A stretch of 64,000 nt of DNA from Escherichia coli (GTDB taxonomy: Bacteria; Pseudomonadota; Gammaproteobacteria; Enterobacterales; Enterobacteriaceae): NCBI RefSeq assembly GCF_003334305.1, contig NZ_QOWS01000022.1; one strand, given 5' to 3'. Positions within the stretch are counted from its first letter, which is position 1. The number at the start of each line of letters is the position of its first letter. The notes beneath the pieces are model-generated. The model ran no database searches and had not been told where the DNA came from. It saw only the letters and a list, made by a program, of their open reading frames with translations. The position numbers were made by a program, and so were the translations under genes. Positions 1 through 18,044 of this stretch are shown here, one piece after another.

Positions 1-50
1 AACAACGCCGCGCTGTCCAGGGCATCGGCTCTTTTCAGAGGAATTGTTTG

Positions 51-332
51 ATGGCTACCCTCACCACTGGCGTGGTTCTTCTTCGCTGGCAACTTCTTAG
101 TGCCGTAATGATGTTTCTGGCCAGCACACTCAACATCCGTTTTCGTCGGTCTGATTATGTCGGGCTTGCGGTGATCAGCAGCGGTCTGGGCGTTGTTTCC
201 GCCTGTTGGTTCGCAATGGGGTTGCTTGGCATCACAATGGCGGACATCACCGCTATCTGGCACAACATCGAGTCGGTGATGATAGAAGAGATGAATCAGA
301 CACCGCCACAATGGCCAATGATTTTGACCTGA
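51..332 (+). CDS. yjcB: small hydrophobic inner-membrane protein, YjcB-like
   Basis: ORF 48..332 with in-frame Met codons at 48 and 51; hydrophobic ~93 aa product; sits beside ssb as in K-12. Confidence 0.55.
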   Translation: MATLTTGVVLLRWQLLSAVMMFLASTLNIRFRRSDYVGLAVISSGLGVVSACWFAMGLLGITMADITAIWHNIESVMIEEMNQTPPQWPMILT

Positions 333-430
333 TACGTAGAAGCCTCCATAACGGAGGCTTCTTTTTTATGGCTGGCAGATGCTTTAATCATCCACCTTAA
401 AACAATATAACCTATTGTTTTAATGACAAA

Positions 431-967
431 TCAGAACGGAATGTCATCATCAAAGTCCATCGGCGGCTCGTTAGACGGCGCTGCCGGAGCGGACTGCTGC
501 GGGCGAGACTGCGCGCCGCCGCTGAACTGATTGCCACCCTGCGGCTGCTGTGGCTGACCCCAACCGCCCTGCGGCTGACCACCACCGATATTGCCACCTG
601 CCGGAGCGCCACCACCCTGACGACCACCCAGCATCTGCATGGTGCCGCCAACGTTCACCACGACTTCTGTGGTGTAGCGATCCTGACCGGATTGATCGGT
701 CCATTTACGGGTACGCAGCTGACCTTCGATATAAACCTGAGAACCTTTACGCAGATATTCGCTCGCCACTTCTGCCAGTTTGCCGAACAGCACAACGCGG
801 TGCCATTCAGTCTGTTCTTTCATCTCGCCGGTCGCTTTATCACGCCAGGATTCGGAAGTAGCCAGCGTAATGTTGGCAACTGCGCCACCATTTGGCATGT
901 AGCGTACTTCCGGGTCCTGACCCAGATTACCAACGAGAATAACCTTGTTTACGCCTCTGCTGGCCAT
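431..967 (-). CDS. ssb: single-stranded DNA-binding protein
   Basis: Translation from [28 protein letters not shown] with Gly/Gln-rich tail ending [11 protein letters not shown] track over-extended 21 codons upstream; 178 aa from ATG at 967. Confidence 0.95.
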
Positions 968-1117
968 GTTCGTGTCTCCTGAAAAAAATCGTTCTGAATA
1001 AGTGTAAACGCGCGATTGTACCATTACCAATAGCGCTTTTACTATGTTGTGACCTCGGTTCCGGGAAACAAACCTGGCCAGACATTGTTACACAACACTC
1101 CGGGTAATGCATTCCAA

Positions 1118-1137
1118 TACTGTATATTCATTCAGGT
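1118..1137. promoter_or_regulatory. LexA (SOS) box in divergent ssb-uvrA promoter region
   Basis: TACTGTATATTCATTCAGGT matches CTGT-N8-ACAG LexA operator consensus, about 85 bp upstream of uvrA start. Confidence 0.85.
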
Positions 1138-1220
1138 CAATTTGTGTCATAATTAACCGTTTGTGATCGCCGGTAGCACCATGCCACCGGGCAAAAAAGC
1201 GTTTAATCCGGGAAAGGTGA

Positions 1221-4043
1221 ATGGATAAGATCGAAGTTCGGGGCGCCCGCACCCATAATCTCAAAAACATCAACCTCGTTATCCCCCGCGACAAGCTCAT
1301 TGTCGTGACCGGGCTTTCGGGTTCTGGCAAATCCTCGCTCGCTTTCGACACCTTATATGCCGAAGGGCAGCGCCGTTACGTTGAATCCCTTTCCGCCTAC
1401 GCGCGGCAGTTTCTGTCACTGATGGAAAAGCCGGACGTCGATCATATTGAGGGGCTTTCTCCTGCCATCTCAATTGAGCAGAAATCGACGTCTCATAACC
1501 CGCGTTCTACGGTGGGGACAATCACCGAAATCCACGACTATTTGCGTTTGTTGTTCGCCCGCGTCGGCGAACCGCGCTGTCCGGACCACGACGTCCCGCT
1601 GGCGGCGCAAACCGTCAGCCAGATGGTGGATAACGTGCTGTCGCAGCCGGAAGGCAAGCGTCTGATGCTGCTCGCGCCAATCATTAAAGAGCGCAAAGGC
1701 GAACACACCAAAACGCTGGAGAACCTGGCAAGCCAGGGTTACATCCGTGCTCGTATTGATGGCGAAGTCTGCGATCTTTCCGATCCGCCGAAACTGGAAC
1801 TGCAAAAGAAACACACTATTGAAGTGGTGGTTGATCGCTTCAAGGTGCGTGACGATCTTACCCAACGTCTTGCGGAGTCGTTTGAAACCGCGCTGGAGCT
1901 TTCCGGTGGTACAGCGGTAGTGGCGGATATGGACGACCCGAAAGCGGAAGAGCTGCTGTTCTCCGCCAACTTCGCCTGCCCAATTTGCGGCTACAGTATG
2001 CGTGAACTGGAGCCGCGACTGTTTTCGTTTAACAACCCGGCAGGTGCCTGCCCGACCTGTGACGGCCTTGGCGTACAGCAATATTTCGATCCTGACCGCG
2101 TGATCCAAAACCCCGAGCTGTCACTGGCTGGCGGTGCGATCCGTGGCTGGGATCGCCGCAACTTCTATTATTTCCAGATGCTGAAATCGCTGGCAGATCA
2201 CTATAAGTTCGACGTCGAAGCGCCGTGGGGCAGCCTGAGCGCGAACGTGCATAAAGTGGTGTTGTACGGTTCTGGCAAAGAAAACATTGAATTCAAATAC
2301 ATGAACGATCGTGGCGATACCTCCATCCGTCGTCATCCGTTCGAAGGCGTGCTGCACAATATGGAGCGCCGTTATAAAGAGACAGAATCCAGTGCGGTAC
2401 GTGAAGAATTAGCCAAGTTTATCAGCAATCGCCCATGCGCCAGCTGCGAAGGGACGCGTCTGCGTCGGGAAGCGCGCCACGTTTATGTCGAGAATACGCC
2501 GCTGCCTGCTATCTCCGACATGAGCATCGGTCATGCGATGGAATTCTTCAACAATCTCAAACTCGCTGGTCAACGGGCGAAGATTGCAGAAAAAATCCTT
2601 AAAGAGATCGGCGATCGTCTGAAATTCCTCGTTAACGTCGGCCTGAATTACCTGACACTTTCCCGCTCGGCAGAAACACTTTCCGGCGGTGAAGCCCAGC
2701 GTATCCGTCTGGCGAGCCAGATTGGTGCGGGCCTGGTTGGCGTTATGTATGTACTGGACGAGCCGTCTATCGGCCTGCACCAGCGCGATAACGAGCGCCT
2801 GTTGGGTACGCTTATCCATCTGCGCGATCTCGGTAATACCGTGATTGTGGTGGAGCATGACGAAGACGCAATTCGCGCCGCTGACCATGTGATCGATATC
2901 GGTCCTGGTGCGGGTGTTCACGGCGGTGAAGTGGTCGCAGAAGGTCCGCTGGAAGCGATTATGGCAGTGCCTGAATCGTTGACCGGGCAGTACATGAGCG
3001 GTAAACGCAAGATTGAAGTGCCGAAGAAACGCGTTCCGGCGAATCCAGAAAAAGTGCTGAAGCTGACAGGTGCACGCGGCAACAACCTGAAGGACGTGAC
3101 GCTCACGCTGCCAGTCGGTCTGTTTACCTGCATCACAGGGGTTTCAGGTTCCGGTAAATCGACGCTGATTAACGACACACTGTTCCCGATTGCCCAACGC
3201 CAGTTGAATGGTGCGACCATCGCCGAACCGGCACCGTATCGCGATATTCAGGGGCTGGAGCATTTCGATAAAGTGATCGATATCGACCAAAGCCCAATTG
3301 GTCGTACTCCACGTTCTAACCCGGCGACCTATACCGGCGTGTTTACACCTGTGCGCGAACTGTTTGCGGGCGTACCGGAATCCCGTGCGCGTGGTTATAC
3401 GCCAGGACGTTTCAGCTTTAACGTCCGTGGCGGGCGCTGCGAAGCCTGTCAGGGCGACGGTGTGATCAAAGTGGAGATGCACTTCCTGCCGGATATCTAC
3501 GTGCCGTGCGATCAGTGCAAAGGTAAACGCTATAACCGTGAAACGCTGGAAATTAAGTACAAAGGCAAAACCATCCACGAAGTGCTGGATATGACCATCG
3601 AAGAGGCGCGTGAGTTCTTTGATGCGGTGCCAGCTCTGGCGCGTAAGCTGCAAACGTTGATGGACGTTGGTCTGACGTACATTCGCCTGGGGCAGTCCGC
3701 AACCACACTTTCTGGTGGTGAAGCCCAGCGCGTGAAGCTGGCGCGTGAGCTGTCAAAACGCGGCACCGGGCAGACGCTGTATATTCTCGACGAGCCGACC
3801 ACCGGTCTGCACTTCGCCGATATTCAGCAACTCCTCGACGTGCTGCATAAACTGCGCGATCAGGGCAATACCATTGTGGTGATTGAGCACAATCTCGACG
3901 TGATCAAAACCGCTGACTGGATTGTCGACCTGGGACCAGAAGGCGGCAGTGGCGGCGGCGAAATCCTCGTCTCCGGTACGCCAGAAACCGTCGCGGAGTG
4001 CGAAGCTTCGCATACGGCACGCTTCCTCAAGCCGATGCTGTAA
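1221..4043 (+). CDS. uvrA: excinuclease ABC subunit A
   Basis: 940 aa ORF; two ABC ATPase modules (GLSGSGKSS and GVSGSGKST Walker A) and zinc-finger Cys clusters; N-terminus [17 protein letters not shown]. Confidence 0.97.
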
Positions 4044-15990: not shown

Positions 15991-17370
15991 TCACGTTGCG
16001 GCAAACCAGGTACCGTTGCGCCAGTGACGCCGCCAGATAGCCGCCAGAGAAAGCCCGCGCAACGCCAGAAAGACGGTTAATGCCAGCCACAAACCATGAT
16101 TACCCAGCCACGGCAGCGTAAGGAGCGTCAGCGCAAAACCTGCGGCGGCCACCGCCATACTGTTACGCATTTCGGCGGCACGCGTTGCGCCTATAAACAT
16201 GCCGTCCAGCAGATAACACCAGACGCCAACCAACGGCAAAATCACCTGCCAGATAAGATAGCGGTCAGCCAGCTGCTGAATCTGGGTTAACGACGTCAGC
16301 AACGCAATGATGTGTTCCCCTGCCAGCAAATAAACCACCGAAAACAGTAACGCTACAATCCCCGACTGGCGGCACGCTGCCCGCCATACATCCAGCAACT
16401 GGCTACCGTCGCGCGCACCGTATGCCTGACCGGAGTGCGCTTCAACCGCGTAGGCAAAACCATCAAGCGCATAGGCGGTAAAGGTGAGTAGCGTCATCAG
16501 AACCGCGTTAACAGCGATAATGTCACTCCCCAGTCGCGCACCAAGTACGGTGATCGCGCCGAAACAGAGTTGCAACAACAGCGAACGCAGCATGATATCG
16601 CGGTTAAGCGCCAGCAAGCGACGGAAGTTTCCTCGCCAGGCAGTTTTCAGTATTTCGCCGGAAATTCCGCGTAGTTTGAGGATTTTACGCACCATTAGCA
16701 GACCAATCAGCAATGTTGCATATTCCGCAATAACCGTCGCCAGCGCCGCGCCCTGCACGTTCATATGTAGCCCCATCACCAGCCAGACATCCAGCACAAT
16801 GTTGAGGATATTGCCGACCACTAACAAAATTACTGGCGCACGGGCATATTGCACGCCGAGTAACCAACCGAGTAATACCAGATTCGCCAGCGACGCCGGA
16901 GCGCTTAACCAGCGGATTTCAAGAAAGCGCCGCGCCTGTTCCAGGACCGCTTCACTACCGCCAACAATATGCAGCGCCAGATCGATAATCGGTGTACGCA
17001 GCAGCGCAATTAACGCCCCAGCCCCCAACGCCAACAGCAACGGTTGCACCAGCGCACGGGCTAATGCCTGAGGATTTTTGGCACCATAAGCCTGCGCAGT
17101 CAGCCCGGTGGTGCTCATGCGTAAAAACAGCAACAGCATAAAGAGAAAGCTGGTCGCCGTTGCACCAACCGCCACGCCGCCCAAATAAACCGGGCTATCA
17201 AGATGACCAATTACCGCCGTATCGACCAGTCCCAGCAACGGAACGGTGATATTGGAGAAAATCATGGGTAAGGCGAGATGCCAGAGTGCTTTATCAGATG
17301 AAGTGAGGAATGCCATGCAGACAAGCCTGATGAAGAGAGATGAAAAACAAACCGCGACGCCTGGCGGCAT
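15991..17370 (-). CDS. dinF: DNA damage-inducible MATE-family efflux protein
   Basis: 459 aa polytopic membrane protein, 18 bp downstream of lexA in the same operon. Confidence 0.9.
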   Translation of the reverse strand: MPPGVAVCFSSLFIRLVCMAFLTSSDKALWHLALPMIFSNITVPLLGLVDTAVIGHLDSPVYLGGVAVGATATSFLFMLLLFLRMSTTGLTAQAYGAKNPQALARALVQPLLLALGAGALIALLRTPIIDLALHIVGGSEAVLEQARRFLEIRWLSAPASLANLVLLGWLLGVQYARAPVILLVVGNILNIVLDVWLVMGLHMNVQGAALATVIAEYATLLIGLLMVRKILKLRGISGEILKTAWRGNFRRLLALNRDIMLRSLLLQLCFGAITVLGARLGSDIIAVNAVLMTLLTFTAYALDGFAYAVEAHSGQAYGARDGSQLLDVWRAACRQSGIVALLFSVVYLLAGEHIIALLTSLTQIQQLADRYLIWQVILPLVGVWCYLLDGMFIGATRAAEMRNSMAVAAAGFALTLLTLPWLGNHGLWLALTVFLALRGLSLAAIWRRHWRNGTWFAAT

Positions 17371-17388: not shown

Positions 17389-17997
17389 TTACAGCCAGTC
17401 GCCGTTGCGAATAACCCCAACCGCCAGCCCTTCAATGGTGAAGCTCTGCTGACGAAGGTCAACGACAATTGGTTTAAACTCGCTATTTTCTGGCAACAGT
17501 TCGACTTTATTGCCCTGTTTTTTCAGGCGCTTAACGGTAACTTCGTCATCAATACGTGCGACAACGACCTGACCGTTACGTACATCCTGAGTTTTATGCA
17601 CTGCCAGCAAGTCACCATCCATAATGCCGATATCTTTCATCGACATCCCGCTGACGCGCAGCAGGAAATCAGCATTCGGCTTGAACAAGGAAGGATCGAC
17701 CTGATAATGACCTTCAATATGCTGTTGCGCCAGAAGCGGTTCACCGGCAGCCACACGACCTACCAGCGGCAACCCTTCTTCCTCTTCCTGCAACAGACGA
17801 ATCCCGCGTGATGCGCCGGAAACAATTTCAATAACGCCTTTGCGTGCCAGCGCCTTCAGATGTTCTTCAGCCGCGTTTGGGGAACGGAACCCCAAACGCT
17901 GCGCGATTTCCGCACGCGTCGGCGGCATACCTGTCTGGCTGATGTGATCACGGATGAGATCAAACACCTCTTGTTGCCTGGCCGTTAACGCTTTCAT
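17389..17997 (-). CDS. lexA: LexA repressor
   Basis: 202 aa; [37 protein letters not shown]; autocleavage site region and S24 peptidase domain (SGMSMKD). Confidence 0.97.
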
Positions 17998-18003
17998 TCC
18001 GCC

Positions 18004-18023
18004 CCCTGGGTGTATATACAGTT
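18004..18023. promoter_or_regulatory. LexA box 1 of lexA promoter
   Basis: CCCTGGGTGTATATACAGTT contains CTGG-N8-ACAG, immediately upstream of lexA start. Confidence 0.85.
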
Positions 18024-18024
18024 A

Positions 18025-18044
18025 TGCTGTGAGTATATACAGCA
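18025..18044. promoter_or_regulatory. LexA box 2 of lexA promoter
   Basis: TGCTGTGAGTATATACAGCA, near-perfect CTGT-N8-ACAG palindrome. Confidence 0.88.

Follow-up and report, generated by a model that had tools for sequence, protein, structure and literature searches.

The spacer between ssb and uvrA in the analyzed E. coli DNA (a stretch of 64,000 nucleotides, hereafter the window) contains, with a probability that we put at roughly 0.88, the classical uvrA/ssb SOS box, i.e., one 20-bp LexA operator placed in a 253-bp region of back-to-back divergent promoters. This analysis established the site itself and its conservation, showed that it is statistically significant and unique in the spacer, and placed it relative to the mapped transcription start sites (TSSs). 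The element was already known, and it is real; the interpretation given in an initial annotation of the window, i.e., a single LexA box shared by the two genes, is supported with two corrections: (i) the spacer is 253 bp long, and (ii) the main promoter of ssb does not lie under the box. The locus is a well-described case of a single repressor site shared by two divergent promoters, and nothing new is added to that description here. The coordinates of the distinguished features are collected in Table 1.

Table 1. Features of the ssb-uvrA region and the lexA operators of the window (window coordinates).
Feature	Position	Strand	Evidence
ssb coding sequence (178 aa; ATG at 967..965)	431..967	-	ORF listing, alignment, RefSeq annotation
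Second proximal ssb promoter (candidate): -35 TTGGTA (1030..1025), 18-nt spacer, -10 TACACT (1006..1001), predicted TSS ~994	994..1030	-	Sigma-70 scoring (prediction)
Main constitutive ssb promoter: extended -10 TG-g-TACAAT (1023..1015), TSS 1009, 42-nt leader	1009..1044	-	SMRT-Cappable-seq TSS, sigma-70 scoring
Distal ssb promoter P1 (candidate): -35 TTGACC (1140..1135), 18-nt spacer, -10 TGGAAT (1116..1111), predicted TSS ~1104	1111..1140	-	Sigma-70 scoring (prediction)
LexA operator (SOS box), TACTGTATATTCATTCAGGT	1118..1137	.	Sequence, PWM, conservation
uvrA -35 region TATTCA, 17-bp spacer, inside the box	1125..1130	+	Deduced from mapped TSS and -10
uvrA extended -10, TG-t-CATAAT	1145..1153	+	-10 of Mendoza-Vargas 2009; conserved offset
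uvrA TSS (G), 62-nt leader	1159	+	SMRT-Cappable-seq and 454-based TSS
uvrA coding sequence (940 aa)	1221..4043	+	ORF listing, RefSeq annotation
lexA tandem operators, directly upstream of lexA (17389..17997, -)	18004..18023 (18.3 bits); 18025..18044 (19.6 bits)		PWM, ORF listing

Genetic organization of the ssb-uvrA region

The window is a part of the E. coli chromosome, and alignment revealed that the ssb-uvrA spacer, together with 30 bp on either side, is base-for-base the same as in strain K-12 MG1655 (MG1655 coordinate = 4275092 - window position). A 271-bp query comprising the whole spacer (window positions 960..1230) was matched in 5426 of 5426 complete E. coli genomes, in many of them at 100% identity, and ssb and uvrA are annotated at its matches. 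Both the open reading frames and the RefSeq annotation agree with the initial annotation that the two genes are transcribed divergently (ssb from the minus strand and uvrA from the plus strand).

The limits that had been proposed for the spacer (1031..1220, 190 bp) were wrong, because the longest open reading frame, with a TTG start codon at position 1030, had been taken for ssb. This start was rejected: the annotated gene begins with the ATG at 967..965 and encodes the 178-aa SSB protein, and the real spacer, delimited by the RefSeq ssb start, spans positions 968..1220 (253 bp). The correction of the start codon matters, since the 63 bp omitted previously contain the principal ssb promoter (-10 hexamer at 1020..1015) and its TSS (1009), which the choice of the longest frame had concealed.

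Identification of the LexA operator

The 20-mer found exactly where the initial annotation had placed a LexA box has the invariant CTG-N10-CAG core, spanning positions 1120..1135 (CTG at 1120..1122 and CAG at 1133..1135). It matches the 20-bp consensus TACTG(TA)5CAGTA at 15 of 20 positions, with five mismatches, and its right arm reads TCAG, not ACAG. Candidate sites were scored with a symmetrised position weight matrix (PWM) built from 23 other E. coli operators, with the uvrA/ssb site and the two lexA operators left out. The 23 training operators are taken to be those of the classical compilations (Fernandez de Henestrosa, 2000; Lewis, 1994).

The PWM scan, which had been suggested as a check of the box, gave a score of 18.5 bits (training operators, 12.9-26.8 bits), ranking this site second among the approximately 64,000 positions of the 64-kb window; one of the two lexA operators came first and the other third, and the fourth-best site scored 12.5 bits. 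In random Markov-1 sequences of 64 kb the mean maximum was 12.0 bits and only 1% reached 18.5 bits anywhere, and the chance of such a score in a 253-bp spacer, derived from the same sequences, is roughly 4e-5. The second-best score within 968..1220 was 2.3 bits, which leaves the operator as the sole LexA-like site of the spacer, in accordance with the single box claimed before. Sancar et al. reportedly footprinted LexA on the uvrA promoter in 1982.

Two simpler patterns were tried and rejected. Searching the whole window for the consensus TACTGTATATATATACAGTA with up to three mismatches produced no match, lexA's own operators included, because the uvrA/ssb operator agrees with the consensus at only 15 positions; this search was too strict, and the weight matrix was used instead. 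The pattern CTGT-N9-CAG yielded 12 matches in the window (5.4 expected), located mostly in coding sequence, and was too loose, as nine of the matches are coding-sequence sites with low PWM scores. The published heterology index of the uvrA/ssb box is 6.98 (Fernandez de Henestrosa et al., 2000, as quoted in PMC9505508) or 6.2 (PMC11228462).

Elsewhere in the window, weak LexA-like sites were found at positions 45434..45453 (12.5 bits) and 32761..32780 (10.9 bits). Their scores are comparable to that of the top site expected in a random 64-kb sequence, and both are probably chance matches.

The uvrA promoter

Two independent methods agree on position 1159 as the uvrA TSS. The primary transcript detected by SMRT-Cappable-seq occupies NC_000913.3 4271016..4273933 on the reverse strand and is represented by 96 reads in one sheet and 161 reads in a later one (PMC6131387, Supplementary Data 1), while the 454-based uvrA TSS listed in the supplement of Mendoza-Vargas (2009) is located at -62 from the ATG codon (window position 1159) and coincides with the known sigma-70 promoter uvrAp, whose -10 element is given there as GTCATAAT. 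Relative to this TSS the operator occupies positions -41 to -22 and covers the -35 region; an overlap of the box with the uvrA -35 has also been described in the literature (PMC9505508).

The LexA dependence of uvrA expression is taken from published data: RNA-seq revealed a 3.9-fold induction by AZT and a 4.4-fold lexA dependence (PMC11228462, Table 1), and the response of uvrA to UV is SOS-dependent (PMC9505508). Moreover, a published reporter plasmid carries the fragment as a uvrA promoter inducible by the SOS response. The mapped start and the LexA-dependent expression bear out the earlier claim that the box is positioned to regulate uvrA.

Promoters of ssb and their relation to the box

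The primary ssb transcript (MG1655 4274083..4274757, forward strand, 62 reads; SMRT-Cappable-seq, PMC6131387, Supplementary Data 1) places the main ssb TSS at window position 1009, and the operator corresponds to positions -109 to -128 relative to it. Because the box is more than 100 bp away, it cannot occlude the main ssb promoter, and transcription from this TSS is LexA-independent. Promoter mapping was the other check that had been suggested: the uvrA TSS puts the box on the -35 region, and the main ssb promoter is not under it.

The existence of three ssb promoters, of which only the most distal is repressible by LexA via the shared box, is taken from the literature (Brandsma 1983, 1985, as cited in PMC9505508). 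A built-in strict consensus promoter scan of 968..1220 found no sigma-70 promoter; its thresholds also miss the mapped uvrA and ssb promoters. Scoring of all hexamer pairs in the spacer with graded sigma-70 matrices recovered both mapped TSSs within 1 nt (predicted ~1008 for ssb and ~1160 for uvrA). The ~1008 candidate combines a weak -35 element, a spacer of 16-18 and the -10 hexamer TACAAT with an upstream TG. The three best-scoring candidates of the spacer, i.e., ~994 (the highest), ~1008 and ~1104 (the third), all face ssb and may correspond to the three ssb promoters known from the literature.

Of these, only the distal candidate (~1104) overlaps the box, which fills the spacer between its -35 and -10 hexamers and touches both of them. 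We propose it as the LexA-controlled distal promoter (P1), in line with the published statement that LexA controls only the most distal ssb promoter (PMC9505508); the exact position of this promoter and the mechanism of its occlusion are deduced here from sequence. The earlier statement that the box is positioned to regulate an ssb promoter as well is supported by the distal promoter of the literature and by a predicted candidate that brackets the box.

Conservation of the box in E. coli and Enterobacterales

For comparative analysis, 120 loci (one genome per species) were retrieved with a degenerate pattern for the first 13 uvrA codons, so that the box itself played no part in their selection. 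In 74 of them, nearly all from Enterobacterales, a divergent ssb lies within 1.5 kb. Each of these 74 loci contains exactly one site of at least 12 bits (range 13.0-22.4 bits), and the box is kept throughout while the surrounding spacer sequence is variable. The distance from the box to the uvrA ATG has a median of 103 nt (interquartile range 100-107 nt), and that from the ssb ATG to the box a median of 146 nt (range 114-362 nt).

In an ungapped profile anchored on the box, information content is highest in the box and in a TGnCATAAT element at a fixed spacing on the uvrA side, and the flank on the ssb side is weakly conserved. Among the 72 unique Enterobacterales sequences, a TGnCATAAT-like -10 lies at most 2 nt from the E. 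coli register in 68, and TATTCA, TATCCA or TATTTA is present at the uvrA -35 offset in 66. Conservation of the candidate P1 hexamers is restricted to near relatives: of the 72 sequences, 17 have TGGAAT and 4 have TTGACC.

Within E. coli, the segment 1106..1155 is perfectly preserved in 4661 of 5421 records and carries one or two mismatches in 760. The one variant inspected (strain EC12) has a C-to-T change, apparently a common polymorphism in E. coli, at position 1138, one base outside the box, which converts the -35 hexamer of candidate P1 from TTGACC to TTAACC and so weakens this putative element. The 20-mer of close relatives differs from that of E. coli by at most one or two bases in the sampled loci, and in E. 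albertii both the box and the uvrA promoter are identical to those of E. coli.

Two loci of the set deserve separate mention. In Candidatus Symbiopectobacterium endolongispinus (L116) the uvrA start is present, with no ssb in the 3.6 kb upstream and no LexA box in the 400 nt scanned. A metagenome-assembled genome labelled Hyphomicrobiales (L018) has the same 20-mer, at the same distance to the uvrA ATG, as Acerihabitans (L005), and is probably a mis-binned enterobacterial contig.

The ssb-uvrA region outside Enterobacterales

Outside Enterobacterales ssb is still divergent from uvrA, at a distance of 1.5-2.1 kb. In Aeromonadales, Alteromonadales, Shewanella and Idiomarina (loci L084, L121, L033, L066, L076 and L007) ssb is immediately preceded on its own strand by the gene of an MFS transporter (430-457 aa; gap of 14-78 nt), so that uvrA faces an MFS-ssb unit and not ssb alone. 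Two Aeromonadales genera, Zobellella and Oceanisphaera, have a box of 14-15 bits, GGCTG(T/G)CTATTCATCCAGTG, located 61 nt from the uvrA ATG and containing the TATTCAT core found in E. coli; they are the only ones, since the PWM detected no LexA box in the uvrA-facing spacer of the Alteromonadales, Shewanella and Idiomarina loci.

Six Vibrio loci (L014, L047, L082, L085, L110 and L112) resemble E. coli in the predicted LexA control of uvrA and in the divergence of ssb and uvrA, and differ in having intervening genes, i.e., a regulator-like gene and galU, both co-directional with uvrA. A box of 21-25 bits lies ~85 nt upstream of uvrA in these loci, and the PWM found no LexA site before ssb (best score at most 7.7 bits). 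Some species in which the pair is split have been described as keeping separate LexA sites for both genes (PMC3323433); the six Vibrio loci differ from that remark, as uvrA keeps the box and ssb is without one. Because of the patterns seen in Vibrio and in the other bacteria outside Enterobacterales, the comparison suggests that the box is maintained mainly for uvrA.

The layout that needs explanation is a LexA box placed ~150 bp upstream of ssb with constitutive promoters in between, and it may be an evolutionary leftover. One conceivable scenario, unlikely in our estimation, is that the LexA-controlled distal promoter P1 is a relic of the promoter of an ancestral MFS-ssb operon, that Enterobacterales lost the MFS gene, and that the box was kept by selection on uvrA alone. 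Such selection would fit the Vibrio loci, where the separated uvrA has retained the box.

Comparison with known systems

The closest known system is the uvrA/ssb SOS box of E. coli K-12, which is the same element: the spacer, the 20-mer, the overlap with the uvrA -35 and the layout with one of three ssb promoters under LexA control are identical. It was originally described by Brandsma et al. (1983, Nature 305:243; 1985, NAR 13:5095; both as summarized in PMC9505508), and a single SOS box between the oppositely transcribed ssb and uvrA genes was described again in 2022 (PMC9505508). The orthologous locus of another genus, Salmonella enterica, also has divergent ssb and uvrA with one common box (heterology index 6.99), and a high, LexA-independent basal expression of ssb has been reported for it (PMC8072944). 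More generally, a shared uvrA/ssb LexA site has been described for gammaproteobacteria (PMC3323433).

Within the window, the operators of lexA, a gene followed downstream by dinF (15991..17370), belong to the same motif class and have similar PWM scores (18.3 and 19.6 bits). They differ in arrangement: two adjacent boxes serve a single promoter (lexA-dinF), whereas in the case of uvrA/ssb one box serves two divergent promoters. The uvrA/ssb case of Sinorhizobium presumably involves the alphaproteobacterial LexA motif.

Disputed LexA control of ssb and alternative explanations

The published data on the SOS response differ between the two genes: the induction of uvrA is robust, and that of ssb is modest and disputed. 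In one alternative, the box is in practice an operator of uvrA only, its location beside a weak ssb-facing promoter would simply follow from the divergent arrangement of the genes, and control of ssb by LexA would be physiologically unimportant. Such an explanation would agree with RNA-seq data, in which ssb was induced 1.5-fold with a lexA dependence of 1.0 (PMC11228462), and with the equal ssb levels of the wild type and the lexA3 mutant during growth (PMC9505508). The position of the main ssb TSS, 109-128 bp from the box, points in the same direction, as do the conservation pattern, which follows the spacing of the uvrA -10 and not the hexamers on the ssb side, and the six Vibrio species, in which the box has remained with uvrA after the split and ssb has nothing above 7.7 bits.

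Other data speak against a uvrA-only function. In RT-qPCR experiments ssb was raised ~7-fold after gamma irradiation and ~18-fold after UV, the lexA3 mutant showed no such increase, and a lexA(Def) strain had strongly elevated ssb (PMC9505508). Furthermore, an inducible distal ssb promoter has been described (Brandsma 1983, 1985, as cited in PMC9505508), separate LexA sites for both genes exist in some species with a split pair (PMC3323433), and in E. coli a good sigma-70 candidate on the ssb strand brackets the box. Taken together, we regard an operator devoted to uvrA alone as quite improbable.

The remaining alternative, that the 20-mer resembles the LexA consensus by accident, within an AT-rich promoter region, and is not bound by LexA, is effectively refuted: it could draw on the five consensus mismatches, on the miss in the search with up to three mismatches and on the 12 mostly coding occurrences of CTGT-N9-CAG, but it is at odds with a score of 18.5 bits, compared with a mean maximum of 12.0 bits in random windows (P ~0.01 per 64 kb), with the presence of one box in all 74 orthologous spacers despite their variable surroundings, and with the LexA dependence of uvrA expression (PMC11228462, PMC9505508).

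Proposed mechanism

If the box acts, as we think, as one operator for two divergent promoters, a LexA dimer bound at 1118..1137 in an undamaged cell would cover the uvrA -35 element and hinder the binding of RNA polymerase, and uvrA transcription would be lowered, not abolished. The same bound dimer would fill the spacer between the -35 and -10 hexamers of the opposite-facing distal ssb promoter (predicted TSS ~1104). Once DNA is damaged, self-cleavage of LexA stimulated by RecA*, by which promoters are relieved in the established course of the SOS response, would free both of them. Most ssb transcription would arise from the proximal promoters (observed TSS 1009 and candidate ~994), which lie over 100 bp away from the operator and would be LexA-independent, and the SOS response would give ssb expression an increment only.

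The predominance of the proximal promoters would be accounted for by the essential character of ssb. The high basal expression of uvrA and its induction of only ~4-fold would result from the sub-optimal operator (15/20 consensus positions, heterology index near 7), whose deviation from the consensus is conserved, which is consistent with a highly expressed, modestly inducible uvrA. A weak operator combined with additional constitutive promoters would in this way allow the essential ssb and the housekeeping repair gene uvrA to keep a high basal expression and still gain an SOS increment.

Other elements of the window

A GC-rich hairpin with T-runs is located at positions 338..362. The genes on its two sides, yjcB (48..332, plus strand) and ssb (431..967, minus strand), are convergent. 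According to SMRT-Cappable-seq data (PMC6131387), the ssb transcript ends slightly beyond the hairpin, at MG1655 4274757 (window position 335), and the hairpin is probably a bidirectional terminator.

A search of Rfam gave no match in or near the ssb-uvrA spacer. Matches above the gathering threshold in other parts of the window include (i) a lysine riboswitch (41301..41497), (ii) the sRNA STnc430 (39257..39406), and (iii) three repeat-type elements of naRNA4 (CssrE), listed at 58870..59045 and 29856..29926.
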